A stretch of 64,000 bases of DNA. It comes from Escherichia phage vB_Eco_mar003J3. Positions 914 to 59,936 of the stretch are shown piece by piece (position 1 is the stretch's first letter; each line of letters begins with the position of its first letter). Location: the sequence record NC_048203.1. One strand, given 5' to 3'. The notes under the pieces are model-generated. The model was given only the letters and a program-made list of their open reading frames with translations, searched no databases and had not been told where the DNA came from. A program made the translations under genes and the position numbers.

Positions 914-1618
914 ATGGCTGGTTCTCGTAGAAAGAAACTTATCCATGAAATCCCTGATGAAACCTTTAAAAAGGTCATTGAACATCTGGAGAACGGTGGT
1001 ACTAAGAAAGCAGCATGTGAGATGCTCGGTGTTTCTTCTAACCCAACTATGGAACGAATGATCGAAGAATGGAGAGATCGTCAGGTTCAAGTTGCGGAAA
1101 TGAAAAAGAAGAAGCGTGGAACACTGATTGAGGGTGTTGAGCTTGCAAACGTAATTGAACAGTATCTTTCTGGTGATTCTTTTGAAGAAATTGCTGATCG
1201 TAACTATCGTTCTGTAGCGATGATTAAATCTGTTCTGGAACGTTATGGTGCTCTGCTTCGTTTAAACGATATTGTTGATCCATTGAATCCTCCGTTGATT
1301 CCTGATGATGCAATGGCAGAAGAATTTGAAGTTGGTGAACTTGTTTGGGTTCCTGGCTATCAGTGTATTGGTGAAATCAAGAAAGCAATGACCAACCCAG
1401 TTGGCTGCTACCGTGTTTGGTTGTTATCAGAAGGTAAACAACAGAACGTTCACTATATGCACTACGAATTAGCTTCTGTTAAACATCTGGAAAAGCTGGG
1501 TGTTGATGTTAAGGCTCTGGGCTTTAAGTGGAGTCGTGAAGAAGTTATCACGTTGGTTAATGAAGCTGTTAAAGCTGCCCTGAAACTAGATAAAGAGAAA
1601 GGAAAACGTCGTGAGTAA
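914..1618 (+). CDS. hypothetical early protein, possible HTH DNA-binding
   Basis: 234-aa ORF just downstream of PN25-like promoter; RBS GAGGAG; N-terminal basic region. Confidence 0.6.
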   Translation: MAGSRRKKLIHEIPDETFKKVIEHLENGGTKKAACEMLGVSSNPTMERMIEEWRDRQVQVAEMKKKKRGTLIEGVELANVIEQYLSGDSFEEIADRNYRSVAMIKSVLERYGALLRLNDIVDPLNPPLIPDDAMAEEFEVGELVWVPGYQCIGEIKKAMTNPVGCYRVWLLSEGKQQNVHYMHYELASVKHLEKLGVDVKALGFKWSREEVITLVNEAVKAALKLDKEKGKRRE

Positions 1619-1847
1619 ACTAACTGATCTGTTAAAAGCTGGAGACGTAAAATATCTCCAGCGAACTAGTTGGGAAAATAATAAAGATTACACAGTAATC
1701 CTGAAATTCTTTGTAGATAGCAATACCGTACGCCAGTACGTGTGGATGCCTTTTGATACATCATTATTCCCAAGTGATGAAGTGTGTGAACTAACCCTAG
1801 AAGAAGCCCTGGCCGACGATTGGGAGATCGTTGAACTAGATGTGTAG
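1611..1847 (+). CDS. hypothetical protein
   Basis: 78-aa ORF with GTG start overlapping the upstream stop; AAGGAAA RBS. Confidence 0.4.
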   Translation: MSKLTDLLKAGDVKYLQRTSWENNKDYTVILKFFVDSNTVRQYVWMPFDTSLFPSDEVCELTLEEALADDWEIVELDV

Positions 1848-1867
1848 CAGTTACTGAAAAATTTCAG

Positions 1868-1896
1868 TTGCTTAATCCTGTAATTCTTGATATAAT
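1868..1896 (+). promoter_or_regulatory. T5-type sigma70 promoter
   Basis: TTGCTT-17 bp-TATAAT upstream of ORF 1955. Confidence 0.6.
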
Positions 1897-1954
1897 ATTC
1901 TCATAGTTTGAAAGAACTATTCTGTTTAATTCTTAATTAAGGAAATCGAAAAAT

Positions 1955-2365
1955 ATGACTACTCCAACTCAGTGGACTGATGAACTGTTCGAAAAAATGT
2001 CTTCCGACTACGTTGCTCGTATGGAGCAATTCCCAGAAGATGAGCGTCCGGGCGTTAGCATGGAAATTGTTAGCGAAATTGCTCAGGAAAATGGTGTAAC
2101 TCCGAACGGTTTCCGTATGAAGCTGACCAAAGCAGGTCTGTATATCAAGAAAGCTGCTGGCTCTACTTCTAAATCAAGCGCATCTACTGGAGAAAAAGCT
2201 TCTGGTGGTTCTCGTACTTCCAAAGCTCAGGCTCACTCCGATCTTCGCTCTGCATTCTCTGATGCTGGCTTAGCCCCGGACTTCCTGGACGACGCAATCA
2301 TCGACAAGCTGACCGGTAAAGCAGCTGCTCATCTGGCAGAAGCTATCCGAGCTATCACTAAGTAA
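1955..2365 (+). CDS. hypothetical protein, Ala/Ser-rich
   Basis: 136-aa ORF with RBS; shares short Ala-rich stretches with ORF 5282..6049. Confidence 0.5.
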   Translation: MTTPTQWTDELFEKMSSDYVARMEQFPEDERPGVSMEIVSEIAQENGVTPNGFRMKLTKAGLYIKKAAGSTSKSSASTGEKASGGSRTSKAQAHSDLRSAFSDAGLAPDFLDDAIIDKLTGKAAAHLAEAIRAITK

Positions 2366-2401
2366 TTCTTAGATAAATCCACCAACACAAGGAATACAGT
2401 T

Positions 2402-2698
2402 ATGAATAAAGCTGAAATTATTGCTCAATGCGAAAAATTTGGTGAGTTTTATCTTCATTACGAAAAACTTCGTCAGAAAGGAACCACGTACCTTCAGGGT
2501 ACGATGGAATTTGATCCAGCTCAGGATAAATACCTGGCTGAGCGTATTAAACGTGAGCGCATCCGTAAGCCGAAAGAAGATGAAATCCTCGTTTTCTCTC
2601 GTACTAATGATAGCTTCCGTTTCATTCCTGTTGCGAAAGTTCGCCGTGTGACGAGCCTCCAGTCAGAGTTAGATCGTGCTTCTCCAGTAGGCCGATAA
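2402..2698 (+). CDS. hypothetical protein
   Basis: 98-aa ORF followed by an intrinsic terminator. Confidence 0.5.
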   Translation: MNKAEIIAQCEKFGEFYLHYEKLRQKGTTYLQGTMEFDPAQDKYLAERIKRERIRKPKEDEILVFSRTNDSFRFIPVAKVRRVTSLQSELDRASPVGR

Positions 2699-2709
2699 GA
2701 AACCAATTA

Positions 2710-2729
2710 GCCCCTATATGGGGCTTTTT
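2710..2729 (+). terminator. rho-independent terminator
   Basis: GCCCC-TATAT-GGGGC hairpin followed by TTTTT. Confidence 0.7.
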
Positions 2730-2748
2730 GTGTATTTGGGATATGTAA

Positions 2749-3057
2749 ATGAGCGATCAGGTAAATCAAAACTATGAAGGACACGTTGACGACCAGTCCA
2801 TCATGCTTTGGGAGAAGGAGGGGGAACAAGTAAGACTAACCGTATCTGAATTTCGTGGGAATCTATACATGGGAATTCGTTACTGGCTCCAAGATATTAC
2901 TGGAGAGTGGTTTCCAACGAAATCCGGCTTCTCTTTTCCTTATACCCTAGAAACTACATCACAGCTATTCTACGCTTTTACGCAAATCCTCAGTGAATCA
3001 GAGGTCTTGCATGAAGTACAGAAACGAGCTGAAGAACTCAAAGCCAAGAATGTCTAG
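2749..3057 (+). CDS. hypothetical protein
   Basis: 102-aa ORF; terminator hairpin overlaps its 3' end. Confidence 0.5.
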   Translation: MSDQVNQNYEGHVDDQSIMLWEKEGEQVRLTVSEFRGNLYMGIRYWLQDITGEWFPTKSGFSFPYTLETTSQLFYAFTQILSESEVLHEVQKRAEELKAKNV

Positions 3058-3072
3058 TTCTTGGCTTTTTCT
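3043..3072 (+). terminator. rho-independent terminator
   Basis: GCCAAGAA-loop-TTCTTGGC hairpin followed by T-run. Confidence 0.65.
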
Positions 3073-3084
3073 TTATAAATGTAC

Positions 3085-3113
3085 TTGCTTTCGACTCAGT
3101 TTTCATATATAAT
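3085..3113 (+). promoter_or_regulatory. T5-type sigma70 promoter
   Basis: TTGCTT-17 bp-TATAAT followed by ATTTATATAAATTGATGAGAGG conserved downstream box. Confidence 0.7.
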
Positions 3114-3142
3114 ATTTATATAAATTGATGAGAGGATCAATT

Positions 3143-3343
3143 ATGGCAATGACAATAACACTTCCAAAGATTCAAGCAAAACTTAATTTGCTCTCCATAG
3201 CAAGAATCAATTACCAGGATAGTATCGGCACTCCAAACCAGAAAGCGTACAAAGATGCGTGGTTGAAAGAAGCTGCTGATTTAGCTGGTATGGCTGCGCA
3301 GTATAGTAAAGAACTCAAAATGGAAATCGCAGATGATGAATAA
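3143..3343 (+). CDS. hypothetical small protein
   Basis: ATG at 3143 with GAGAGGA RBS; inside ORF-track frame 3125..3343. Confidence 0.4.
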   Translation: MAMTITLPKIQAKLNLLSIARINYQDSIGTPNQKAYKDAWLKEAADLAGMAAQYSKELKMEIADDE

Positions 3344-9080: not shown

Positions 9081-11648
9081 TTGAAAATCGCAGTAGTTGA
9101 TAAAGCTCTAAATAACACTCGTTATGATAAACATTTCCAGCTATACGGCGAGGAAGTTGATGTATTCCATATGTGTAACGAGAAGTTGTCCGGTCGTTTG
9201 CTCAAAAAGCATATTACTATCGGGACTCCAGATAACCCGTTCGATCCGAACGATTACGATTTTGTTGTACTAGTTGGTGCTGAACCTTTCCTGTATTTCG
9301 CAGGTAAGAAAGGTATCGGTGATTATACTGGTAAACGTGTAGAGCATGGAGGCTATGCCAACTGGATTGCAAGTATTAGTCCAGCTCAGCTACACTTTAA
9401 ACCTGAAATGAAACCAGTTTTCGATGCAACTGTTGAAAGTATTCATGACATTATTAATGGTCGTGAGAAGATTGCAAAAGCTGGTGATTATCGTCCTATT
9501 ACTGATCCAGATGAAGCTGAAGAATACATCAAGATGGTGTATAATATGGTTATCGGACCTATCGCATTCGACTCCGAAACCTCAGCTCTGTATGCTCGTG
9601 ATGGTTATCTTCTTGGTGTTTCTATGTCTCACCAAGAGTATCAGGGTGTCTATATTGACTCTGACAGCATTACCGAAGTAGCTGTACATTATCTCCAGAA
9701 AATTCTGGATAGCAAGAATCATCAGATCGTTTTTCATAACTTGAAGTTCGATATGCACTTTTACTCCTATCATCTAGGACTTTCCTTCGAGAAAGCACAT
9801 AAAGAGCGTAGACTTCATGATACCATGTTGCAACACTATGTTCTTGATGAACGTCGTGGTACTCACGGCTTGAAATCTCTGGCTATGAAGTATACTGACA
9901 TGGGCGATTATGACTTTGAACTGGATAAGTTCAAGGATGATTATTGCAAGGCACATAAGATCAAAAAAGAGGATTTCAGCTATGATCTGATTCCATTTGA
10001 TATTATGTGGCCTTATGCTGCAAAAGATACCGATGCTACTCTGCGTCTGCATAATTTCTTCTTACCGAAAATTGAGAAGAATGAAAAGCTTTGCAGTCTA
10101 TACTATGACGTTCTGATGCCTGGTTGTGTATTCTTGCAACGTGTGGAAGATCGTGGTGTACCGATTTCTGTTGATCGCTTGAAAGAAGCTCAGTATCAGC
10201 TAACTCACAATCTGAACAAGGCTCGTGAGAAACTGTATACTTATCCAGAAGTCGTTCAGCTAGAAAAAGACCAGAACGAAGCATTTAACCCTAACTCTGT
10301 TAAGCAACTCCGTGTTCTTCTGTTTGATTATGTTGGTTTGACTCCAACTGGTAAACTGACGGATACAGGTGCAGATTCTACAAATGCAGAAGCTCTGAAT
10401 GAACTGGCTACTCAGCACCCGATTGCTAAAACTCTGCTAGAGATTCGTAAGCTGACTAAGCTGATCTCTACTTATGTTGAGAAGATTCTTCTGAGCATCG
10501 ATGCAGATGGTTGCATTCGTACCGGTTTCCACGAACACATGACTACTTCTGGTCGTCTGAGTTCTTCTGGTAAGCTAAACCTGCAACAGTTACCACGTGA
10601 TGAATCTATTATCAAGGGTTGTGTAGTAGCTCCCCCTGGATATCGTGTAATCGCATGGGACTTAACAACTGCGGAAGTTTATTACGCTGCTGTACTGTCT
10701 GGTGACAGAAACATGCAACAAGTATTTATCAACATGAAGAATGAGCCGGATAAATACCCTGACTTCCACTCAAACATCGCACACATGGTATTTAAACTGA
10801 CCTGTGAACCACGTGATGTTAAAAAGCTGTTCCCAGCTCTGCGTCAGGCTGCTAAGGCAATTACCTTCGGTATTCTGTATGGTTCTGGCCCAGCGAAAGT
10901 AGCTCATTCTGTTAACGAAGCTCTTCTGGAACAGGCTGCTAAGACAGGCGAACCGTTTGTTGAATGTACCGTTGCAGATGCTAAGGACTATATCGAAACT
11001 TACTTCGGTCAGTTCCCTCAGCTTAAGCGTTGGATTGATAAGTGCCACGATCAGATCAAGAACTTTGGATTCATCTATAGTCACTTTGGTCGTAAGCGTC
11101 GTCTGCACAACATCCATTCCGAAGATCGTGGTGTTCAGGGTGAAGAAATCCGTTCTGGATTTAACGCAATCATTCAGTCTGCATCTTCTGATAGCCTGTT
11201 GTTAGGTGCTATTGATGCTGATGAAGAAATCCTGTCACTGGGTCTAGGAAAAGAGATGAAGATCGTCATGTTGGTTCACGACTCCGTGGTTGCCATTGTA
11301 CGTGAAGATCTGATCGATCAGTATAACGAGATTCTGATTCGTAACATCCAGAAGGATCGTGGTATTAGTATCCCTGGCTGCCCAATCGGTATTGATTCTG
11401 ATTCTGAGAAAGGTGGTTCTCGCGACTACTCTTGTGGTAAGATGAAGAAACAGCACCCATCAATCGCTTGTATTGATGATGATGAATATACTCGTTATGT
11501 TAAGGGTGTATTACTCGATGCAGATTTCGAGTATAAGAAGTTAGCTGCAATGGATAAAGAGCATCCAGACCACAGCAAGTACAAGGATGATAAGTTTATT
11601 GCTGTATGTAAAGATCTGGATAATGTGAAAAGGATTTTAGGTGCTTGA
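9081..11648 (+). CDS. DNA polymerase, family A with 3'-5' exonuclease domain
   Basis: 855 aa (the size I recall for T5 DNA polymerase); exonuclease motif IAFDSETSALY and PolA motifs; listed start is TTG after GAGGAG. Confidence 0.95.
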   Translation: MKIAVVDKALNNTRYDKHFQLYGEEVDVFHMCNEKLSGRLLKKHITIGTPDNPFDPNDYDFVVLVGAEPFLYFAGKKGIGDYTGKRVEHGGYANWIASISPAQLHFKPEMKPVFDATVESIHDIINGREKIAKAGDYRPITDPDEAEEYIKMVYNMVIGPIAFDSETSALYARDGYLLGVSMSHQEYQGVYIDSDSITEVAVHYLQKILDSKNHQIVFHNLKFDMHFYSYHLGLSFEKAHKERRLHDTMLQHYVLDERRGTHGLKSLAMKYTDMGDYDFELDKFKDDYCKAHKIKKEDFSYDLIPFDIMWPYAAKDTDATLRLHNFFLPKIEKNEKLCSLYYDVLMPGCVFLQRVEDRGVPISVDRLKEAQYQLTHNLNKAREKLYTYPEVVQLEKDQNEAFNPNSVKQLRVLLFDYVGLTPTGKLTDTGADSTNAEALNELATQHPIAKTLLEIRKLTKLISTYVEKILLSIDADGCIRTGFHEHMTTSGRLSSSGKLNLQQLPRDESIIKGCVVAPPGYRVIAWDLTTAEVYYAAVLSGDRNMQQVFINMKNEPDKYPDFHSNIAHMVFKLTCEPRDVKKLFPALRQAAKAITFGILYGSGPAKVAHSVNEALLEQAAKTGEPFVECTVADAKDYIETYFGQFPQLKRWIDKCHDQIKNFGFIYSHFGRKRRLHNIHSEDRGVQGEEIRSGFNAIIQSASSDSLLLGAIDADEEILSLGLGKEMKIVMLVHDSVVAIVREDLIDQYNEILIRNIQKDRGISIPGCPIGIDSDSEKGGSRDYSCGKMKKQHPSIACIDDDEYTRYVKGVLLDADFEYKKLAAMDKEHPDHSKYKDDKFIAVCKDLDNVKRILGA

Positions 11649-37942: not shown

Positions 37943-38428
37943 TTATCTGCGAAGTGCCCTACGAGGTGGCTGATACCTCACTGTTACATTTATTTCCGCT
38001 AAACCATATGGGGCCAGTAGACCCTCATCTGTAGCTACTGAGGTAATGCTCATATCAGTTGCCTCACATGGGAAGGTCGATCCATTAGGTTTACTAACAG
38101 TATATTCTAAATTTCCACCTGTGTCAATGACGGTTTTTATGTCAGCTACGAGTTTTTCAAGTTGCTCTTGAATATCTGTTTTCTCTTTGTCATACACGAG
38201 GATTGGAAGTTCTAAAAACATCCACTGTTGGCCTGAGGGAAGATACTGCCCAGTTTCAGTTCCGATATGGACTGCCACATAAGGAAATTCTCGGATTTCC
38301 TCGAATTTATAAGTTTGACGAGAAACGTTTCCATAAAGGTTATTGAAATACTCGTCAGGTTGTGAACCATCCATTTGTGTGGCGATTCGGTCAACCACTG
38401 CTTGTGCAATACTTGTTCTGTGATCCAT
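37943..38428 (-). CDS. tail terminator protein (p142-like)
   Basis: 161 aa; immediately upstream of the tube gene. Confidence 0.6.
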   Translation of the reverse strand: MDHRTSIAQAVVDRIATQMDGSQPDEYFNNLYGNVSRQTYKFEEIREFPYVAVHIGTETGQYLPSGQQWMFLELPILVYDKEKTDIQEQLEKLVADIKTVIDTGGNLEYTVSKPNGSTFPCEATDMSITSVATDEGLLAPYGLAEINVTVRYQPPRRALRR

Positions 38429-49430: not shown

Positions 49431-50165
49431 TTAGGCAACTTTTAATTTATCAATGAATTGTTGCGGAGCGGTACTATAGTCTCCCCTTTCTTCCTCAGTC
49501 ATACCCTGCCAGCACATTTCTAAGCGCTGGCAAAGATATTGATAATCATTATCATCATCTAACGATTCATCAATAAAGGTTTCACCGATCAATGCTACGC
49601 CGATTGATAGGATATCGTTAACGGCTTGGGCGTCCAGTGTTTTGAATCCAGCACTTGCCGCCACCGATAATACGCCTTTATGATCATCAATCATCGTAAA
49701 ATCAGCGTTTGGATATAGCTGTTTAAATAGTTCAAAGTAATAGCTTTTGTATACAGCGTCTTTGCTGTGGTATATTTCGCTAACCTTATCCGCTTCAAAG
49801 TATTTGTGTAATGTATCGCGGGAGAATACGCGGATATTGCTATTTCCGCGCCCTCGCAAGCCTTGTTTACGCAAATAAAAGTAATCGCTTTTAGACATAA
49901 GGCGCGCGGTACAAATAACATTTAAAGTATTTGCATCATTCATACATTGGCGCATATATTCAACCAACGGCAATAAAGAATCCTGCATAATTAAATCATG
50001 TTTACAGGCTTCGCGGGAATACTTATTTAAATTTAAATTCCCGTTATCATCAAAGCAAGGCGCTACACGATGGAAAGAATTAATGATTGTGCCGTCCAGA
50101 TCCCAAATCATGACGCGGGAAATATGCGGGAAATTATGGGTAATATTCGTTTTAACTTGATTCAT
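49431..50165 (-). CDS. dmp: 5'-deoxyribonucleotidase (Dmp-like, HAD-type)
   Basis: 244 aa (the size I recall for T5 Dmp); WDLDGT HAD motif I. Confidence 0.8.
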   Translation of the reverse strand: MNQVKTNITHNFPHISRVMIWDLDGTIINSFHRVAPCFDDNGNLNLNKYSREACKHDLIMQDSLLPLVEYMRQCMNDANTLNVICTARLMSKSDYFYLRKQGLRGRGNSNIRVFSRDTLHKYFEADKVSEIYHSKDAVYKSYYFELFKQLYPNADFTMIDDHKGVLSVAASAGFKTLDAQAVNDILSIGVALIGETFIDESLDDDNDYQYLCQRLEMCWQGMTEEERGDYSTAPQQFIDKLKVA

Positions 50166-50713: not shown

Positions 50714-52378
50714 TTAGGCAAAGAATTTGCCATTTTTGAAATCAATCAAGGTACGTTGACCGTTTGCATATGTAATTAAATGCGTTTGCGTCCAGCTTGA
50801 CGCGCCAACGTTGTAACCCATATCGAGACTACCAGCAACGCCAGCGGTATAAACGCCGCCGTATATACTAGCCGTGTGAGTGTGGCCCGTGTTGAGGCGT
50901 CCTAACTTTTTAAACTGTTTAGGATTGCCCCGACTGCCGTTAATGCCGTTGTGACCATGTACACCGCATTCAATTCCTGCAATCTTGAAAGATTGGTCAG
51001 TAGTCAGGAAAATAGCGTTAAATTCGCAACCTGCAACGTTTCTAAGCGCATAATCCAATACGTTAAAGGTATCATCTTGTTTTGCAATAGCCGCATAAAT
51101 CGCAGCGTTTAGGCTGTGATACAGTTCGGCGTTTGCGGGGTCGTCTTTAATGTTAGCGTTACGATCATCAAGCCAACGGGATAACGCCAAATCATGATTG
51201 GATTCCACGATGATTGTTTGAGAAAAATCGCGCTCCATTGACTCCAACACGCGACCGGTATCAATGAGATCGTCAATAACTTTATCACGTCCGGCGGCGT
51301 ATTGTTTCGCAAGGAATACACCACTTGCGCGGTTGTGATGGTTACGCGATGTAAAATCATGCACATCATGAATAAACTGATATTTCGGTTTAAGAATATC
51401 AAGCAAGCTATTTTCGCCCACCCATGATGCAACGGCGCATTCATCATCTAATTTTTCGGCGTGAATATCGCCATATTGCAAGCCTAGAACATGATCGGAC
51501 GTTTCAAAACATCCGGTAGGCATAGCGCAAATATTCAAATCATAAAACATTCCGCTTTCATCCATTGTTTCAAGCTGGCGAACAAAAAATTCGCCGTCGT
51601 CGTCAAATTCTACCAACAAAGCGCCGTAATTATGCAGCGCCTCAGCTTTTTGACCTGCTTTCTGCTGAATATAGTTTTTAAGTGTAGCCGTTCCGGTGGA
51701 GTACATACGGCGCACTACTTCACCTTTTAACGCTGGCACACTTTCAGCGGTAATTTTAGCGTGACCAATTGCCAGACCTTCAATATTTAAAGCCGTGGCG
51801 GTTTCTGCGAATCCTGAAAGCGGATAGTCTGCCGTTGGTAACACGTTAATTTCAGCCATGAAAGCAAAACGGCGATTATTTAAAAATACGTTTTTCTCGC
51901 AAATATATTTATTAAATGCGGGATCGTATTTAATGCCTTCGTTACCTTCTCCATTCTGGAAGCCGTTTTTATTGTAAATGAATTTACTAACCAGCAATTC
52001 ACCGCCGATATATTCAGCGAATTGCTCAAGCACTTTCAAAAAGTTTTTATGTGGGAAAGTATTATTTTGAATCGACGTTAGAATAAAACGGCGACCGGAT
52101 TTAACTTCCCACTGTTCCACGGTACTAGAAACAATCCCCGCCGCTTCTGGGCGATCATCATTTTTAATCGCCTTTTCAGCTTTTGCCGCTTTCGGTTTCG
52201 CTGGCTTATTTGCTTCCAGCCAGTCACAAATTGCGGTCGAATGTTTCGGCGTGTCATAAACAGCTTTTGAAATATCGTCACAAACTTCCAATTTAGTAGC
52301 GCGTAAACGCTTGCCATAGAAATTAAAATCAGCGGCAAGTTTAGTGATCTGGGACTGTTTTTCTGCGGAAATATTCAT
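50714..52378 (-). CDS. A1: pre-early A1-like metallophosphoesterase
   Basis: 554 aa; calcineurin-like motifs GDIH, HDVHDF, ESNHD, GVHGHNG, GHTH; adjacent to dmp as in T5. Confidence 0.8.
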   Translation of the reverse strand: MNISAEKQSQITKLAADFNFYGKRLRATKLEVCDDISKAVYDTPKHSTAICDWLEANKPAKPKAAKAEKAIKNDDRPEAAGIVSSTVEQWEVKSGRRFILTSIQNNTFPHKNFLKVLEQFAEYIGGELLVSKFIYNKNGFQNGEGNEGIKYDPAFNKYICEKNVFLNNRRFAFMAEINVLPTADYPLSGFAETATALNIEGLAIGHAKITAESVPALKGEVVRRMYSTGTATLKNYIQQKAGQKAEALHNYGALLVEFDDDGEFFVRQLETMDESGMFYDLNICAMPTGCFETSDHVLGLQYGDIHAEKLDDECAVASWVGENSLLDILKPKYQFIHDVHDFTSRNHHNRASGVFLAKQYAAGRDKVIDDLIDTGRVLESMERDFSQTIIVESNHDLALSRWLDDRNANIKDDPANAELYHSLNAAIYAAIAKQDDTFNVLDYALRNVAGCEFNAIFLTTDQSFKIAGIECGVHGHNGINGSRGNPKQFKKLGRLNTGHTHTASIYGGVYTAGVAGSLDMGYNVGASSWTQTHLITYANGQRTLIDFKNGKFFA

Positions 52379-52731: not shown

Positions 52732-53166
52732 TTATTCGCCTGCGGCCTGTTTTACTTCATCGACAACGCCTAACAATTGCGCCATGGCTTCCAGCGTTTC
52801 CAGTTTTGCACTTTCCAAACTTGCCAGATCGTCGGCGTCTTTGATAATGCCTGAATCAATGGCGTGTTTAGCGATAACGCGCACATAGTGAGCTTTACGG
52901 ATTGAGCTACCGCCGCCAACTTTGCGCGGCTTGTCGCTTTTCTGGTAGGCTTTTGCACTGGTCAATTTAGAACGTACAGAGACAGGGGAAGCCGCGCCAA
53001 CGGCGGCGGCGATTTCTTTTAAGCCGTCACTGTTAGCAAATTCAACGCCATTTTTTTCGATCATTTCAGAATACAAAGAGACAGCTTTCTGCGTGTTTTC
53101 TTCATTCCAAGAGAATTTTGCGGCTTTTTCGGTTTTAACGTTAGACATAGTAAATACTCCGTTCAA
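52732..53166 (-). CDS. pre-early A2-like protein (putative)
   Basis: 144-aa ORF upstream of the A1-like gene, size close to the ~15 kDa I recall for T5 A2; assignment by synteny only. Confidence 0.45.
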   Translation of the reverse strand: MNGVFTMSNVKTEKAAKFSWNEENTQKAVSLYSEMIEKNGVEFANSDGLKEIAAAVGAASPVSVRSKLTSAKAYQKSDKPRKVGGGSSIRKAHYVRVIAKHAIDSGIIKDADDLASLESAKLETLEAMAQLLGVVDEVKQAAGE

Positions 53167-53247: not shown

Positions 53248-53499
53248 TTATGCTATGGCTTGCCATTTATCATCTTTCTGAATGACCTTTACAACGTCGC
53301 CAGATTTAACACGGACGGTATAAATCGGCTTGCCGTGGTTACTGCGTTCCGTTTCCGCGTAGACCGCTTCAATCTTATCAAAGGGATCAAGCGCCGCACC
53401 TTTAATACGTTCGGCTTTTCCGGTTAATTCATCCGTTTTAGTTACAAAAGGAATGAATACAGATTGACCTACTTTCGGCGCGGTAATAACGTTTTGCAT
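53248..53499 (-). CDS. hypothetical pre-early protein
   Basis: 83-aa ORF with GGAG RBS. Confidence 0.5.
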   Translation of the reverse strand: MQNVITAPKVGQSVFIPFVTKTDELTGKAERIKGAALDPFDKIEAVYAETERSNHGKPIYTVRVKSGDVVKVIQKDDKWQAIA

Positions 53500-53873: not shown

Positions 53874-53906
53874 ATCGTCGATTCCTTATAATATCTAAGT
53901 TTACCG

Positions 53907-53929
53907 CCGATAGGCTTTAAGATGTTCCC
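53907..53929. repeat. 23-bp inverted repeat, right arm
   Basis: CCGATAGGCTTTAAGATGTTCCC. Confidence 0.85.
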
Positions 53930-54028
53930 TAATTTTTAAAGAGCATGGCAGGGTTTTGAAAGGTCAAACAGACTGTCAATCGCTGTTATCCCCGCCGTGT
54001 AGTTCGTCATTGCCGCCCTACGTGATAA

Positions 54029-54057
54029 ATAATAGGAGAATACCGAGAAGGGCGCAA
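54029..54057 (-). promoter_or_regulatory. candidate sigma70 promoter for the - strand pre-early operon
   Basis: On - strand TTGCGC-17 bp-TATTAT about 150 nt upstream of ORF 53873; weak call. Confidence 0.3.
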
Positions 54058-54280
54058 GCGTATTTTTGTAAAGAAACGTAAAGAAAACCACTACTCGCAA
54101 ACGTCCAGCGGCGCATTAAATTTAATGAAACGGGCGCGCGAATAACACCAAAACAACCATTTTAGCAAGTAATTTTTTCATTTATATCTGCTCTAGGGTA
54201 CTTGACAAAATCTAAAATCCTCGTGGTGAGGTTTTCTCGGTGTACCCCTTATGATTGCCTATCTTTTCCTTTGAGGCGCT

Positions 54281-54307
54281 TAGAATGCGTTACAGAGCGT
54301 TTTAGAC
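54281..54307. repeat. 27-bp direct repeat, copy 1
   Basis: TTAGAATGCGTTACAGAGCGTTTTAGA, identical at 57704-57730. Confidence 0.85.
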
Positions 54308-54521
54308 CCTGTTAATAACTTATACAAAAAGCAAAAATGAAATTTAATGAGTTATCCACTTGATTTTTCAAAAAAGTATTTTCTGCTGTTATTTTTCATT
54401 GACAAATAAGTCTGGACGTGTATCAGATCGTTAGCAGACTAATAATCGCTAGGATGATAATCACGCTGGTGGATTGTAACGGCTGAAATCATTAGCAGAC
54501 TATTAATCAAGGAAAATCCTA

Positions 54522-54552
54522 TTAGCCAACTAACTATTTCATAATATATAAT
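54522..54552 (+). promoter_or_regulatory. T5-type promoter (weak -35)
   Basis: TATAAT followed by ATACATATAAATTAATGAGAAAT conserved downstream box; about 430 nt upstream of ORF 54982. Confidence 0.45.
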
Positions 54553-54636
54553 ATACATATAAATTAATGAGAAATAATAAATATGAGAAACTATCGGGCT
54601 AAGTGAGAACCACTATCATTTAACTTATACCCAAAG

Positions 54637-54645
54637 TTATCCACA
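54637..54645 (+). promoter_or_regulatory. DnaA box (TTATCCACA)
   Basis: Exact match to the consensus 9-mer. Confidence 0.5.
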
Positions 54646-54685
54646 GCACAAAATAACTTGACGCAATAGGCGACGTTTTGGCGAC

Positions 54686-54694
54686 TTATCCACA
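54686..54694 (+). promoter_or_regulatory. DnaA box (TTATCCACA)
   Basis: Exact match to the consensus 9-mer; part of inverted repeat A. Confidence 0.5.
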
Positions 54695-54714
54695 GACTTA
54701 TATACAGGTTATCC

Positions 54715-54734
54715 TACTGTATAAATATACAGGG
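54715..54734. promoter_or_regulatory. LexA/SOS-box-like palindrome
   Basis: TACTGTATAAATATACAGGG fits CTGT-N8-ACAG; part of inverted repeat A. Confidence 0.4.
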
Positions 54735-54981
54735 TAGAATGGTAGCAGTAACAACCGCAATCAAATTTAAGCGGCCTAGAACGCGCTACACGGCGTTTTC
54801 TCACTGCTGCCCTTATTATAATAAAGCCTTGTGTACACTTACAGAGTGCTAGAAATAGAAAACGCGCGGATATCATAAAAACAGGCAGTAAGCAAGGAAT
54901 AAAAAACCTTTTCTTTTTCCTTGCCCCTAGCGAACAAATATCTATATCATTCACTCACCGATTAACGAGGGAGACAAAGAA

Positions 54982-56007
54982 ATGTCTACTGTAAGAATTG
55001 CAGTACCAGCAAACGCCACTATTATTAAGGGTAGTTTGCGCAACCTGCTAGACGGATCAAGTCTAGCAAGCCTACAGCTAGACGGATCAAGTCTAGCAAG
55101 CCTACAACATACGGCGGCAATGGTTGAAAAGATTCACGATGAAATTTTAGATAATAATGATACTCATTATTGTTTAAGTGATTTCACACAATTACTAGAC
55201 CCTACCCGCGTTCTAGTGCTTTACAACCGTGACTATCACATCATGCGAAATCAGCGGGGAAGAGATATTGATTTTATCATTGTAGGTCACGACGAAAAAA
55301 GCTATATTGCCCGTGGTTACAATGTACAAGAAAAAGAAATGGTTTTCGCTACTCGCGTAAATGGTATTAATTCCAGCGATGTAGAAGATTTACTATCTAG
55401 TATTTGTGGCGAATTGACAAGCGCCATTAAACGTGCTGATAGTTACGCAATCGAAACAACTGGCGTATTGTGTTTTGGACGCGCTAGAGGTAACATGTTG
55501 ATCCCTAACGATTATTTAGAGTATGGGAATGAATCAAACGTTGCAAACGCTGGATTTACACTTTTACCGCTTGACAATGTAACAAAACAGGCTGTACAAT
55601 CTCAAACTTCAAGCGCAAATGCGCAAACTACTGAAAATAAAGGAAATATTATGTCTAAAGTATCTTCTATCGTTGCTGCTAATAAATCCGCCGTTGTAAA
55701 CGCTGCTAAACTGGAAGTGGGTAAAATTGCACTGACTCAAGTCACAAAAGTAGCGGCGAAAAAAGCACCGTTTATGATTAAAGGGTATATTGATACGCCG
55801 ATTGGTCGTGTAGTGATCGCTAACCTGCTGAGTGTAGCGGTTGACCAGTACGCCCCGACTAATGCGAAAGCTAAAGCGGTAGCAGGCGCGGCAATGGAAG
55901 CGGCAATGTTGGAAATGGTACAAAGTTTCAATATTGCTGAAATGATCGATGAAATGGTAAAAGGTATTGACATTTCAACCTTTACCCAAAATGCTGAAAG
56001 CGAGTAA
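54982..56007 (+). CDS. hypothetical protein (341 aa) with internal 10-aa tandem duplication
   Basis: RBS GAGGGAG; N-terminal LDGSSLASLQ x2; possible internal start MSKVSSIV after AAAGGAAA. Confidence 0.6.
   Translation: MSTVRIAVPANATIIKGSLRNLLDGSSLASLQLDGSSLASLQHTAAMVEKIHDEILDNNDTHYCLSDFTQLLDPTRVLVLYNRDYHIMRNQRGRDIDFIIVGHDEKSYIARGYNVQEKEMVFATRVNGINSSDVEDLLSSICGELTSAIKRADSYAIETTGVLCFGRARGNMLIPNDYLEYGNESNVANAGFTLLPLDNVTKQAVQSQTSSANAQTTENKGNIMSKVSSIVAANKSAVVNAAKLEVGKIALTQVTKVAAKKAPFMIKGYIDTPIGRVVIANLLSVAVDQYAPTNAKAKAVAGAAMEAAMLEMVQSFNIAEMIDEMVKGIDISTFTQNAESE
55048..55107. repeat. 30-bp tandem duplication, two copies
   Basis: CTAGACGGATCAAGTCTAGCAAGCCTACAG / ...ACAA, one mismatch. Confidence 0.9.
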
Positions 56008-56035
56008 TAATTAGTCTAATGTAAAGTTTTGTAAA

Positions 56036-56061
56036 GGTCGCCCTAATCGGCGGCCTTTTTT
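56036..56061 (+). terminator. rho-independent terminator
   Basis: GGTCGCC-CTAATC-GGCGGCC hairpin followed by TTTTTT. Confidence 0.65.
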
Positions 56062-56125
56062 GTTATAATGCCTTTACACCGAAACGGTGGATTGAAAATT
56101 TTCCCCGATTTCTAGGAGGCGTTAA

Positions 56126-56353
56126 ATGGTACATTCATCATCTTCTGCAATTTTTAATGGTATGGAATGGGTATCCGTTCCCACTATTGTAAGCGTTATG
56201 GTTTCGGAGTTTGGGATTGGTAAAACTTATGTTACCATTCAGGAGCTTTACGACAATGACAAGATTGATCAGCAAACAGCCGGATTTTTGCTGGATGAAT
56301 TGAAAGCTAACCACTGCACCAAAAAGCAAGCGGCAAAAATTGTTTTAATGTAA
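56126..56353 (+). CDS. hypothetical protein (75 aa)
   Basis: RBS TAGGAGG. Confidence 0.5.
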   Translation: MVHSSSSAIFNGMEWVSVPTIVSVMVSEFGIGKTYVTIQELYDNDKIDQQTAGFLLDELKANHCTKKQAAKIVLM

Positions 56354-56360
56354 TTAATAA

Positions 56361-56388
56361 CGGGGCGTTACTTTCGCCCCTAATTTCT
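56361..56388 (+). terminator. hairpin / partial terminator
   Basis: GGGGCG-TTACTTT-CGCCCC followed by TAATTTCT. Confidence 0.5.
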
Positions 56389-56401
56389 AGGAGCTAATAA
56401 A

Positions 56402-56551
56402 ATGGTTATTTTTCGATCAGTTCTAGCAGGTATCTTGGGCGCTATTTTATCGTTGTTTGCAATAGCTTTCGGTGTTCATGCCGTTATTATCGGCGCGGGT
56501 ATCGCGGGGTTTTCTTACCTGTTAGGCTGTATGACTGGTAAAGGGGGATAA
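56402..56551 (+). CDS. small membrane protein (49 aa, two predicted TM helices)
   Basis: RBS TAGGAGCTAATAAAATG; hydrophobic Gly/Ala-rich sequence; below ORF-track cut-off. Confidence 0.45.
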   Translation: MVIFRSVLAGILGAILSLFAIAFGVHAVIIGAGIAGFSYLLGCMTGKGG

Positions 56552-56553
56552 AA

Positions 56554-56766
56554 ATGTTAAAAAATGTAAGCCTTGCCCGTTCTAAAGGTTTTAAGCTGGT
56601 GGATGTTAACACGTTCGAGCGTCCAGATTGTAAAATCGAATATGTAGCACGCAACAAAAACGCGTTTCGTGTTACAGAAAAGAAATTTGACAAGCGCGGC
56701 AATTTGGTAGCCGAAACGGTTAAACACTTTGCCACCTTTTACGCTGCGTTTCGGGGAGTGTTATAA
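56554..56766 (+). CDS. hypothetical protein (70 aa)
   Basis: RBS AAGGGGGA; tightly packed operon. Confidence 0.5.
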   Translation: MLKNVSLARSKGFKLVDVNTFERPDCKIEYVARNKNAFRVTEKKFDKRGNLVAETVKHFATFYAAFRGVL

Positions 56767-56767
56767 A

Positions 56768-57112
56768 ATGGTAATTTACGAGGGCAACCGATTTGTAACT
56801 AATTGCCGTCCGGCATTATTAGCAAACTATTTAAATCAGCTTTCACCAGTTTATAAAGGCGTGGTTAATATCTATGAGGGCAAAGCACATTATAAAATTT
56901 CTGCCGTTGTCGCCCGTGAACTAGCGTTTCAATTTTTAACTTTTGGGTCTTGTGACGTTCAGGTTATGGGGGAAGCGTTAATAGCGGAAAATGAAAATGA
57001 ATTTATTGACATTTTCCGCAAAGTATGTACAGAGCGCCTGATTATGAAAGGCGCGTATATTCAATCAACCGCTGAAAGTATCGAAACAGCGTTTCGAAAG
57101 GTGGCGCAATGA
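56768..57112 (+). CDS. hypothetical protein (114 aa)
   Basis: ATG 56768 with GGGAG RBS; inside ORF-track frame 56729..57112. Confidence 0.5.
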   Translation: MVIYEGNRFVTNCRPALLANYLNQLSPVYKGVVNIYEGKAHYKISAVVARELAFQFLTFGSCDVQVMGEALIAENENEFIDIFRKVCTERLIMKGAYIQSTAESIETAFRKVAQ

Positions 57113-57294
57113 CTAGAAATGAAGCTGTTAAAGCTATGTTAGAAGGTAAAAAAGTAACTCATCGTTATTTTTCCATGCATGAATATTTATTCATGAAATA
57201 TGAAGTGATCACCACGGAGGATGGTTATAAATTTAATCATGAATTTTATAGCCGTGAAATGTTTAATGATGGCTGGCAGCTTTATTATGAATAG
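57109..57294 (+). CDS. hypothetical protein (61 aa)
   Basis: ATGA overlap with upstream gene; RBS AAGGTGG. Confidence 0.45.
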   Translation: MTRNEAVKAMLEGKKVTHRYFSMHEYLFMKYEVITTEDGYKFNHEFYSREMFNDGWQLYYE

Positions 57295-57420
57295 CTGGTG
57301 GCGAAAAACACAAAGCCATAAATCTAATAATACCGCTGGGAAACATTCCCAGCGTTTACGATTTGGTAATGGCTTCACAATGATATTGATAATCATTCTC
57401 ATTCTAGGAGCAATGGCGTT

Positions 57421-57615
57421 ATGAGTGATAAAATTGTTGTAACTAAAACTACTGTTACCGTTGATACTTTCTTTGTGCCTGATACGCTGGAAAATCGGCA
57501 AGCGGTGGAGCGTGGCGATTATGATAAAGTGATTTATGATAACGATGGTTACTATCAACATTTGGTAGACTCCTACGGCGAAAGCGAAAAGATCACACAT
57601 CGACTACCAGACTAA
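57421..57615 (+). CDS. hypothetical protein (64 aa)
   Basis: RBS AGGAG; followed by terminator. Confidence 0.5.
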   Translation: MSDKIVVTKTTVTVDTFFVPDTLENRQAVERGDYDKVIYDNDGYYQHLVDSYGESEKITHRLPD

Positions 57616-57621
57616 TAATAA

Positions 57622-57650
57622 CGGGGCGCAACTATCGGCCCCGTCTTTTC
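57622..57650 (+). terminator. rho-independent terminator
   Basis: CGGGGC-loop-GCCCCG hairpin followed by TCTTTTCT. Confidence 0.7.
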
Positions 57651-57703
57651 TGGCCTTCCTCAAATTTCCCCTTATTAAAATACCTCCGCCAAAAATAAAC
57701 GCG

Positions 57704-57730
57704 TTAGAATGCGTTACAGAGCGTTTTAGA
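57704..57730. repeat. 27-bp direct repeat, copy 2
   Basis: Identical to 54281-54307. Confidence 0.85.
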
Positions 57731-57760
57731 GCTATATTAGAGTTATTCACTACGCAGGAA

Positions 57761-57780
57761 TACTGTATAAATATACAGTA
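57761..57780. promoter_or_regulatory. LexA/SOS-box-like palindrome
   Basis: TACTGTATAAATATACAGTA: one mismatch from the idealised SOS box TACTGTATATATATACAGTA. Confidence 0.45.
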
Positions 57781-57788
57781 GAATAACC

Positions 57789-57809
57789 TGTTGATAAGTC
57801 TGTTGATAA
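57789..57809 (-). promoter_or_regulatory. two DnaA-box-like 9-mers (TTATCAACA)
   Basis: TGTTGATAA at 57789-57797 and 57801-57809; one mismatch from TTATCCACA. Confidence 0.35.
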
Positions 57810-57861
57810 CGCCCCAAAATCGCTAGGATTTTGTCAAGTCAAATCGTGCTGTTAATAAACC

Positions 57862-57870
57862 TGTGGATAA
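57862..57870 (-). promoter_or_regulatory. DnaA box (TTATCCACA on - strand)
   Basis: TGTGGATAA, exact consensus. Confidence 0.5.
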
Positions 57871-57902
57871 CTTAAATAACAGTGTTTCTCACTTCGCTTT
57901 GT

Positions 57903-58044
57903 AAATGCGAGTCATTCTCATTATCATTAGCGTTTCCCTTCCTAAATGCAAATCATTCTCATTCGTATTCCGGTAGTCAAATGATAACTGTTCTCATTCG
58001 CATTCAACTTCTCAAATGCGAATCATTCTCATTATCATTCGCAT
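57903..58044. repeat. four direct repeats of AAATGCGAATCATTCTCATTatCATT-like unit
   Basis: Copies begin at 57903, 57944, 57979, 58013 (period ~35-41 bp). Confidence 0.8.
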
Positions 58045-58053
58045 TTCGGCAGG

Positions 58054-58076
58054 CAGGGCAATTTGCCCTGCGCTTT
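58054..58076 (+). terminator. palindrome plus T-run (terminator-like)
   Basis: CAGGGCA-ATT-TGCCCTG followed by CGCTTTTG. Confidence 0.45.
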
Positions 58077-58077
58077 T

Positions 58078-58677
58078 GTGCAAATCCGACATTTGCCCCC
58101 ACGGATTACGTGCCAGTGTGCATGTGCGAATCCGACAATTTTTGGTAGTGTGCAAATCCGATGGGAAATATTTTTTATATGTGCGAATCCGACAATGAAT
58201 TTTCCTAAAAACTCCAGCAATCCGCAACTGCGATGCAATCCAGCTGGATTTACTAGAATATGTGCAAAACCGACAAGTGTTAAGGTGTGCGAATCCGACA
58301 AGATTTTTGTGACTTCGATTGGAGGGTGTGTGATTGTGTGGGTTTGGGGAGAAGTGCGAATCCGATGAGATTTTGGGAGGAACTACGGAAGGAGCAGCGG
58401 TGATGGTGCTTTAGCACCGATTTGCTGCATTTTTGGGGATAATGCGGGATGTTTTGGCTAGAATTGAGATTAGTGGAGATAAAGCGAAATTTTATTAGCA
58501 AAATGGGGCAAAATCGCTTGACAAGTGAAAATTCCTGTGGCTCTAAAAACTCAGGCAATCATGGGCCTTCGGCCCGAAATAATGCTGCTATTTTCAGTGT
58601 TCCTAAAAACTTTGGAGACTCCTATCAATGTGCAAATCCGACCATAAATTTCTAGAAACATAATGTGCAAATCCGAT
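58078..58677. repeat. iteron-like array: nine copies of (T)GTGCRAATCCGAYA
   Basis: Copies at 58078, 58124, 58150, 58181, 58262, 58287, 58354, 58630, 58665, all same orientation, irregular spacing. Confidence 0.85.
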
Positions 58678-58721
58678 AGCAATTTCCAGAAATGTGTTTT
58701 GGAAAAATGTCTCCTAGAAAT

Positions 58722-58793
58722 AACCGCCCTCCCTATAACCGCCCTGTATAGGAAACCGCCCTAGGATATGTAACGTTGGAGAGAAACTGCCCT
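58722..58793. repeat. four direct copies of AAC(C/T)GCCCT
   Basis: At 58722, 58737, 58754, 58785 with 15-31 bp spacing. Confidence 0.7.
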
Positions 58794-59210
58794 AGAATGC
58801 GTGAGAAACAGATTTAAAGTTTAGTGTAAACTCTAGAGTTAATGCTCAACTATTCCTAGAAACTTAGGAGTCTACTAGAAAGTGTTGTGCCATCCTAGCA
58901 GATGAGCGGCAACCGGTGTATCATCTTGAACACAAATATTGCCTTTAAATATTATAAGGTAAATAAAAGTTAATATACCCCCATTTCATGAGAGTTAGCC
59001 CCTCTAGGCGCGTGCGATTTGATACATCCTCCTGAGTCTCGGGGAGGAAGAACAATTGACGAGAACCTGCAAGCAGAACCGTCATCAAGTATTTTCCTAC
59101 GAGGAATGATGTAAATCTACGGCCTAGAGGTAAAAACAAGTTGATGTTTTTAATCTATGAGATTATTATAACATGCAGCTCAAATAATGTCAAGAAGATT
59201 TTGCTAACGT

Positions 59211-59936
59211 TTATAGATCGTGATTGACTTTGAGTATGACTCCCTTCGATGCCATGAAAAGGAATGTTGCTAGGTAAGATGACTCGGAATTTAGCGCAGA
59301 ATAATCTACACTTCCTCTAGGTCTAGTTTCTTGTTTAGTGTCAAGAATTGTTTCGATATCAAACTTAACAGATCTTGCAACTTTTCTAGCTTGTTCAGGA
59401 TCACGTAAGATTTCAAAGTGAGCAGCATCTAGAATATGGTTAGATGATGTTGATTCGTCAACTATACTTAGATGAACCTGCGCAAGTGTAGATACGATTC
59501 CTAGCTTTAATTCAGATAGAGAAGAATATGGTGGTTCTACTTTCTTTGTAAGTCTAGGGAGATGATCGTATTTACATTGCTTTTGAGGAATCATCAGAAT
59601 ATTAGGATAACATTCTAAACATGACTTTGCATTTCCTTCTTTAAAATGCGGGAGTTCTTTATCTGCAAAGACGTGGAATGAATCTGCTGAAAATCCTTTA
59701 ATAGTAGGATCAACAGTTTGAATCAGACGACGTAAACTAATATATGAAGGAGCTAATGTGACTTCTTCTGCATCTTTATTATATTTAGGTTGCCCACTAG
59801 CATTAATATATGCTGGATAAAACTCTGCACAAAATGCTACTGCATGAGCTTCTAACTCATTAAGTTCGGAAACATTCTTTCCATTACAAGCTCTAGCTAA
59901 CTTAATAATCTCTGCTAAATTCTTTTTTATACTCAT
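59211..59936 (-). CDS. hypothetical early protein (241 aa)
   Basis: Long ORF, first of a tightly packed - strand operon. Confidence 0.6.
   Translation of the reverse strand: MSIKKNLAEIIKLARACNGKNVSELNELEAHAVAFCAEFYPAYINASGQPKYNKDAEEVTLAPSYISLRRLIQTVDPTIKGFSADSFHVFADKELPHFKEGNAKSCLECYPNILMIPQKQCKYDHLPRLTKKVEPPYSSLSELKLGIVSTLAQVHLSIVDESTSSNHILDAAHFEILRDPEQARKVARSVKFDIETILDTKQETRPRGSVDYSALNSESSYLATFLFMASKGVILKVNHDL

Follow-up and report, generated by a model that had tools for sequence, protein, structure and literature searches.

What do the two inverted repeats that bracket a gene cassette in Escherichia phage vB_Eco_mar003J3 do, and why does each of them join paired DnaA boxes to a palindrome resembling the LexA operator? 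The repeats, called arms A and B below, were studied in a 64,000-nucleotide stretch of sequence record NC_048203.1, to which we refer as the window. Sequence comparison identifies the window as DNA of a T5-like phage of the EPS7 type (Demerecviridae, genus Epseptimavirus) and bears out an earlier, sequence-only reading of the same DNA, which had taken the phage to be virulent; the 3.7 kb surrounding the repeats is 87-96% identical to the corresponding DNA of vB_EcoS_Ace, SP76, GRNsp8 and EPS7. On balance, we lean towards an answer in which the arms serve as composite landing pads for two host proteins, DnaA and LexA, and act in cis during the two-step entry of the phage DNA.

The arms and the T5 injection-stop region

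The arms have the following extents.

54598-54734, + strand: arm A, proximal (on the side of the pre-early gene A2); homologue of the T5 IRC-spacer-IRD (Repeat Region 2), running from its outer to its inner end on the + strand.
57761-57897, - strand: arm B, distal; homologue of the T5 IRD'-spacer-IRC' (Repeat Region 3).

An inverted repeat search paired 54598-54732 with 57763-57897, two segments of 135 nt that are 74-75% complementary at a spacing of 3030 nt; for arm A, the evidence also includes a pairwise comparison, an alignment with 28 relatives and the description by Davison cited below. The sequence-only reading had proposed inverted copies of ~47 bp that are about 87% identical. Repeats bracketing the cassette are indeed present, and every sequence quoted was found at its place, but the proposed extent is too short for arms of ~135 nt and the identity is slightly too high: pairwise comparison of the 49-nt cores gives 41 identical positions out of 49 (84%). 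Because a binomial estimate predicts only ~1e-7 inverted pairs as good as the cores in 64 kb, and <1e-22 as good as the full arms, the match cannot be put down to chance. Arm B is 88.8% identical over 206 nt to positions 9338-9543 of T5 (AY692264), which lie inside the segment 9140-10144 annotated in GenBank as 'injection stop signal'. Its comparison with E. coli genomes returned only chance-level matches of 38-45 nt (E = 4e-3) and no host or plasmid homologue.

Within the arms, DnaA boxes and a spacer motif are arranged as follows.

54625-54645, + strand: outer DnaA pair of arm A; TTATACCCA (degenerate, 54625), AAG and TTATCCACA (exact, 54637-54645).
54658-54663, + strand: conserved spacer motif TTGAC(G/A) between the DnaA pairs of arm A, seen in the alignment.
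54686-54717, + strand: inner DnaA array of arm A; TTATCCACA (exact), GAC, TTATATACA (54698), GG and TTATCCTAC (54709).
57789-57797 and 57801-57809, - strand: inner DnaA pair of arm B; TTATCAACA twice, with TGTTGATAA at 57789 and 57801.
57850-57858 and 57862-57870, - strand: outer DnaA pair of arm B; TTATTAACA (degenerate) and TTATCCACA, from the sequence and a pattern scan.

The exact box TTATCCACA has two + strand copies (54637 and 54686) and one - strand copy (57862), of which those at 54637 and 57862 had been correctly located before; these are all three copies in the 64-kb window, where 0.75 would be expected anywhere, and all lie inside the arms. Every box has a partner 3 bp away (54625/54637, 54686/54698, 57789/57801 and 57850/57862). 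The inner boxes of arm A follow one another head to tail with a period of 11-12 bp, and a third, weak box (TTATCCTAC, 54709) overlaps the first 3 nt of the LexA-like box of that arm; a weak third box of arm B (TTATTCTAC, 57778-57786, - strand) likewise overlaps the LexA-like box there. Such arrays are generally known from oriC and P1 oriR, in which a high-affinity TTATCCACA also stands beside weaker boxes, head to tail and 2-3 bp apart. Unlike those origins, the phage arrays show no evident unwinding element or replication role, and they are already inside the cell when production of phage replication proteins has yet to begin. The spacer motif has its counterpart in arm B as TTGACA (57832-57837, - strand), and a promoter scan found no usable -10 at 16-18 bp from TTGAC(G/A).

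Judged from position, length (131-135 nt), DnaA pairs 3 bp apart, the variable 2-4 kb cassette between them and sequence homology, the arms are the published IRC-spacer-IRD and IRD'-spacer-IRC' repeats of the T5 family, a known structure that the sequence-only reading had not recognised as part of the T5 injection-stop region. In 25 T5-like phages including EPS7, Davison (bioRxiv 10.1101/866236) described a 131-bp inverted repeat, IRC-spacer-IRD, in Repeat Region 2 and its partner, IRD'-spacer-IRC', in Repeat Region 3, the two flanking 2-4 kb of poorly conserved coding sequence. The same account lists DnaA or DnaA-like boxes paired 3 bp apart, eight in each first-step-transfer (FST) region, places the right-hand copy just left of the FST shear point, and names palindromes palC and palD, with palindromes as possible cleavage sites. 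The DnaA boxes were first noted in 1987 (per Davison, 10.1101/866236), where Heusterspreute 1987 and Wang 2005 are cited for the repeats. Since repeats and DnaA boxes are thus already in the literature, the structure itself is not new, and we see no structural difference from the T5 repeats; what is added here is a LexA reading of the inner palindrome, its invariance across the family and an inversion in the type 2 and 3 clades. The LexA-operator reading appears to be unpublished, although its priority is uncertain: the text of Davison (10.1101/866236) mentions neither LexA nor SOS, and no paper linking a LexA or SOS box to T5-like phages was found in the searchable literature, where an earlier mention in Heusterspreute 1987, Wang 2005 or Davison 2015 is possible. 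According to papers from 2023 and 2026, functional, experimental studies of the sites in the injection-stop region are still lacking.

LexA-like palindromes and their conservation

Each arm carries one palindrome at its inner end.

54715-54734, no strand assigned: palindrome A, TACTGTATAAATATACAGGG; 22.5 bits, heterology index ~3.8, three mismatches to the ideal LexA box.
57761-57780, no strand assigned: palindrome B, TACTGTATAAATATACAGTA; 25.7 bits, the best site of the window, heterology index ~0.9, one mismatch.

Scores were obtained with a position weight matrix built from an informally assembled set of 20 E. coli operators, which themselves score 13-23.9 bits with heterology indices of 0.5-9.2. 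Boxes A and B are the two best sites in the 64-kb window, the next best reaching 17.3 bits, and they are the only two places that match the ideal LexA box with up to three mismatches, against an expectation of 0.00. Both have the 16-bp CTGT-N8-ACAG core, which occurs at four sites in the window, together with an AT-rich centre and a score within or above the range of these operators. Scoring by the LexA matrix and by DnaA pattern scans, which the sequence-only reading had suggested as a check, therefore supports both arms as good matches to host sites. The phage boxes share with gammaproteobacterial LexA operators the CTGT-N8-ACAG core and the TACTGTATAT half-site, and they equal or exceed chromosomal operators in score. 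Unlike chromosomal operators, however, they overlap no promoter, reside in a strictly virulent phage, are fused to a DnaA array and are present as inverted duplicates 3 kb apart. The use of LexA operators by mobile elements has precedents in colicin operons, coliphage 186 tum and CTXphi.

Conservation was examined in loci collected around A2 homologues irrespective of any palindrome (numbered with the prefix L), to which named GenBank phages were added. Sites of 15 bits or more as a rule number exactly two in each of the 37 loci of the T5/EPS7 type (type 1; 12-20 kb per locus), and each of the two adjoins DnaA boxes; in some of the more distant loci only one is present, or none. The distal box is kept in T5, EPS7, the Klebsiella Sugarlandvirus IME260, Pectobacterium phage My1 and Providencia Priunavirus PR1, which has the distal arm only, as well as in three lineages of Vibrio phages (Pontus, L054 and D254) and in a metagenomic fragment whose A1 identity is 31%. 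When the distal arm was aligned over nine lineages that span E. coli, Vibrio and Providencia phages, the longest invariant run was CTGTAT..TAT.CAG, followed by GGATAA of the adjoining DnaA box, while A2 protein identity over the same lineages falls to 41%. Among 19 distinct variants of the box, changes are confined almost wholly to half-site positions 1, 2, 9 and 10, and the rare inner changes are one-sided and uncompensated. Since variation is tolerated at the positions that LexA tolerates, and is not compensated, the palindrome is better explained as a protein site for a LexA-type dimer than as a hairpin. When 2.9 million viral contigs were searched for a LexA core with a DnaA pair within 14 nt of it, the only contigs to carry this composite motif were T5-like. 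Loss of the palindromes in relatives had been named beforehand as part of what would speak against the sequence-only reading; instead, the comparative evidence indicates that the distal arm with its LexA-like box is under strong purifying selection throughout the family, and that this box is the best conserved element of the repeat.

Several smaller features of the boxes were noted alongside. The third-best LexA-like site, AACTGTATACTTATCCAGAA (10231-10250, 17.3 bits), is within the operator range and lies far from the pre-early region. Close relatives differ at the middle two bases of box B (57770-57771, and the same position in L002-L038), some having AA and others TT between fixed flanks, and in both the window and T5 the box centres are in direct orientation despite the inverted arms. 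The swap could result from a template switch within the palindrome or from gene conversion of one arm by the other. On the inner side of the boxes, a conserved motif, TTAGAATGCG(A/T)TACAGAGCGTTTTAGAGC, is found at 57706-57735 and 54776-54805, its two copies in the window being direct rather than inverted, with no fit to a sigma-70 promoter; it recurs beside LexA-like half-boxes in Vibrio phages (L049, 9545-9573) and in a distant metagenomic relative (L059, ~2190-2215).

Host proteins or phage proteins at the stop

The arms lie between the dmp-A1-A2 operon side on the left and an untranslated repeat field on the right.

49431-50165, - strand: dmp, pre-early gene left of the arms.
50714-52378, - strand: A1, pre-early gene left of the arms.
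52732-53166, - strand: A2, pre-early gene left of the arms.
53248-53499, - strand: homologue of T5p007, pre-early gene left of the arms.
57886-58680, + strand: untranslated repeat field right of arm B, equivalent to T5 Repeat Region 3.
57886-58047, + strand: 51-nt repeats, from the repeat search.
58053-58071, + strand: G+C hairpin GCAGGGCAATTTGCCCTGC, followed by GC/TTTT; the T5 major nick has its homologue at 58073/58074.
58077-58373 and ~58630-58680, + strand: TGTGCGAATCCGACAA repeats, from the repeat search.

Because the minus-strand genes on the left are pre-early genes, the repeats sit in FST DNA, the ~8% of the genome that enters the cell first and after which DNA transfer pauses. About 176 bp past arm B, 58053-58074 corresponds by homology to the T5 st0 site whose annotation gives it as the major single-chain interruption and as the end of the left terminal repeat. 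Two observations on the left-hand DNA were made in passing. Three ATTAGCAGACTAATAATC-like repeats at 54427-54540 lie in the divergent control region left of arm A and are probably the equivalent of T5 Repeat Region 1. In the EPS7 record (NC_010583, locus L001), the intact 554-aa A1 of the window matches 1612-3277 in three pieces and frames, with only 1612-2604 annotated, and sequencing frameshifts in that record look likely.

The operon that the arms flank is the variable, dispensable right-hand pre-early one, and arm B sits just inside the untranslated injection-stop region. In the reading that we favour, each arm would form a unit of two DnaA-box pairs, a fixed spacer and a near-consensus LexA operator abutting the inner pair, of which arm B would be the ancestral, universally kept form and arm A an inverted copy, free to decay. 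Once the first 8% of the genome had entered, it would take DnaA and a LexA dimer already present in the host only seconds to occupy the arms, and the resulting nucleoprotein complex would act in cis on the entering DNA, whether as an anchor, as a mark of the boundary or as a help in the transfer pause; the arms would not be operators of a promoter in the classical sense. Homologous recombination between the arms would have flipped the enclosed cassette over evolutionary time. Both the binding of DnaA and LexA and the function of their complex we infer from sequence features. The pause is independent of new protein synthesis, which fits pre-existing host proteins better than the phage protein A2. 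Any specific role of the arms in the pause we regard as considerably less probable than their role as landing pads.

A number of points weigh against this proposal. It is not obvious how a protein bound to DNA inside the cell could halt DNA that is still outside, and the earlier model in which membrane-bound DnaA holds the DNA and so stops injection (Davison, 10.1101/866236) is itself a proposal. The dependence of the LexA matrix on an informally assembled operator set bears on every score given above, and co-variation of the box with the host is uninformative, since the known hosts all share one LexA motif. The proximal box is less protected than the distal one and has lost its CTG in several close relatives, a decay in keeping with the secondary importance that Davison ascribed to the left copy. 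In the Vibrio lineage L049/L050, the DnaA boxes of the distal arm are kept and no LexA box is present there, so that LexA binding cannot be indispensable. Finally, T5 with hegG through 017 deleted is viable and forms small plaques (2026 preprint), and from the gene map this deletion should also remove arm A.

The alternative that survives best, which we nevertheless judge unlikely, assigns the palindrome to a phage protein (dimeric A2, or an A1/A2 nuclease of the kind that Davison proposed for the palindromes), so that its likeness to a LexA operator would be incidental or mimicry and the arms would serve the restart of transfer or cutting. A2 is a DNA-binding dimer needed for second-step transfer, and palD is listed among possible cleavage sites (Davison, 10.1101/866236). 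Both A2 and A1 are present in every lineage that has the repeat module. However, E. coli and Vibrio phages share just 41-43% identity in A2 but an invariant core of the box, and the box follows the LexA consensus position by position. A protein made only after entry also cannot explain a pause that is independent of protein synthesis. The DNA-binding domains of host LexA and DnaA are far better conserved than A2, which further counts against a phage protein as the ligand.

A bolder form of the host-protein proposal, about which we are equally doubtful, would make LexA and DnaA the long-sought pre-existing factors at the injection stop, with the pause itself, or the decision or timing of its release, wired throughout Demerecviridae to the SOS and replication status of the host. 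The composite complex would then form on the last DNA to enter before the pause, and breakdown of host DNA driven by A1 could activate RecA and so release LexA as part of the restart.

The cassette between the arms and the meaning for T5-like DNA entry

The + strand cassette at 54982-57615 was confirmed as originally delimited, with the following signals and genes.

54913-54981, + strand: probable cassette promoter and leader; -35 TTGCCC (54921-54926), -10 TATCAT (54945-54950).
54982-56007, + strand: first cassette gene, 341 aa, DUF7566 (Pfam PF24450, E = 3.5e-130); 53% identity to T5 by tblastn.
56126-56353, 56402-56551, 56554-56766, 56729-57112, 57109-57294 and 57421-57615, + strand: six small open reading frames (ORFs) with homologues in EPS7 and T5.
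57621-57652, + strand: probable cassette terminator; G+C-rich hairpin followed by a T run, a direct repeat of which matches the terminator-like 56355-56380.

The homologue of the 341-aa gene is the T5 37-kD pre-early protein, marked as unessential in the T5 record, and the promoter at 54913-54981 is homologous to the 'putative promoter' upstream of the 37-kD gene (AY692264). A Pfam scan of the seven cassette proteins matched DUF7566 alone, with no match for the six small ORFs. The DUF7566 gene contains a perfect 30-bp tandem duplication (55047-55106) that yields a 10-residue repeat in the protein. Box A lies ~187 bp upstream of the -35 of the cassette promoter and box B ~110 bp past the terminator; a promoter scan found no sigma-70 promoter with acceptable spacing and -10 that overlaps either box or uses the spacer TTGAC, so the promoter overlap typical of a LexA operator is absent from both. 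In My1, two operons diverge from the middle of the inter-arm segment and both boxes fall at operon 3' ends; the IME260 cassette is directed away from the distal arm, towards A2. The boxes hold their place relative to the DnaA arrays and not to promoters, which argues against a classical SOS-regulated promoter.

To the right of the repeat field, a perfect consensus sigma-70 promoter (59193-59165, - strand; TTGACA, 17 nt, TATAAT, with an upstream TG) is directed leftward, into the untranslated repeats and towards arm B. Sequences that we take to be the T5 promoters N25, N26 and D/E20 have near-exact matches at 839-909, 1853-1913 and 38073-38140, and are of use as a lead only. Presumed sequences of N25, N26, H207, D/E20, J5 and K28a were sought near the arms, and none maps within them; these names conflict with the placement of P_D/E20 in the 2026 preprint and are not used here. 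An Rfam scan of 53900-59300 gave nothing near threshold, its weak matches being PrrF (26.9 bits, where the gathering score is 90) and two Salmonella small RNAs on the terminator at 56012-56076. Sites resembling the Fur box (GATAATGATAATCATTATC, 1-3 mismatches) number 7 against 0.05 expected, all in the pre-early 10 kb; one lies just upstream of the ORF 57421-57615 (57382-57400) and is kept in EPS7, and another is at 55153-55171. The best of them, 49535-49559, was set aside, as it lies inside the dmp coding sequence (GAT GAT GAT AAT GAT TAT), is conserved with dmp and is probably driven by coding. The repeats at 57906-58046 (TGCGAATCATTCTCATT) also look Fur-like, and the weak PrrF match falls there.

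Could the arms act on transcription as boundaries, where bound DnaA and LexA block or terminate RNA polymerase? Transcription reading out into the repeat field or into DNA still being threaded would be stopped, or else transcription reading in from the leftward promoter at 59193-59165. In its favour, the arms of My1 lie at operon ends, arm B of the window lies at the cassette's 3' end, and the leftward promoter, a perfect consensus, faces the repeat field and arm B. Transcription blocks mediated by DnaA are established in E. coli. However, a good intrinsic terminator already closes the cassette at ~57621-57652, and in type-1 phages arm A is upstream of the cassette promoter; we consider a roadblock improbable.

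Less probable still is that the boxes are classical SOS operators, at which LexA would repress the cassette, or a small transcript borne by the arm, until SOS induction. The sequence-only reading had envisaged such coupling of cassette expression to the SOS state, the operators are of very high quality, and the toxicity of several T5 cassette genes when expressed alone would make repression plausible. The placement of the boxes is nonetheless not that of operators: no sigma-70 promoter overlaps them, box A being remote from the promoter and box B past the terminator, and they follow the DnaA boxes rather than promoters when the cassette is inverted or rearranged.

The content of the cassette varies among relatives, and so does its orientation. 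At the protein level, homologues of the 341-aa and 64-aa genes in IME260, My1 and L043-L048 lie on the A2 strand and in reversed order, whereas wherever type-1 loci carry the two genes (35 of 37, with the window, EPS7 and T5 among them), their strand is the one opposite to A2. Opposite strand and reversed gene order together imply that the inter-arm segment has been flipped at least once. An inverted orientation in relatives, which the sequence-only reading had suggested seeking, is thus found in the Sugarlandvirus and My1 clades. Davison regarded the type 2 and 3 cassettes as unrelated replacements with the opposite reading direction; the protein homologues point to an inversion instead, and correct the view of these cassettes as simply unrelated. 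As expected of inverted repeats, the flip probably arose by rare homologous recombination between them and not by an active switch, because no clade mixes the two orientations and a recombinase gene is absent.

The same data make it very hard to believe in either of two earlier suggestions, that a former transposable element left the arms behind as its terminal inverted repeats, or that the arms are sites of site-specific inversion. Inverted repeats do bracket a variable accessory cassette, and that cassette is inverted in other clades, so that the idea of an invertible segment is right to this extent. Yet no transposase or invertase is encoded in or beside it (DUF7566 being the only Pfam match), in contrast to Hin/Gin/Cin-type segments, and the other orientation is confined to distant clades: the 35 carrying type-1 loci share a single orientation, which fits one rare homologous flip. 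As for a mobile origin, the flanks differ (aaactatcgg on the left, tttgtaaatg on the right) and show no target duplication, the module's location does not change from lineage to lineage, and in PR1 arm B occurs without a partner.

A DnaA-dependent replication origin for the terminal repeat, as implied by the earlier suggestion that DnaA governs replication of the segment, is just as implausible: three exact TTATCCACA boxes and weaker ones do make up four to five boxes per arm in oriC-like head-to-tail arrays, but T5 origins are located mid-genome and the replication genes are outside the cell during first-step transfer (Davison, 10.1101/866236), no 13-mer array like a duplex unwinding element was identified in the arms, although unwinding elements were not scored, and the arms are duplicated in inverted orientation around genes unrelated to replication.

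In conclusion, the stop of T5 after entry of 8% of its DNA, and the restart that follows, have posed a question for some 60 years. The palindromes described here add a second, very specific candidate for a host factor to the DnaA boxes already known, and make the T5 injection stop more directly testable. If LexA does bind the arms, these phages would represent an unusual case, in which a strictly virulent phage keeps a LexA site away from any promoter.

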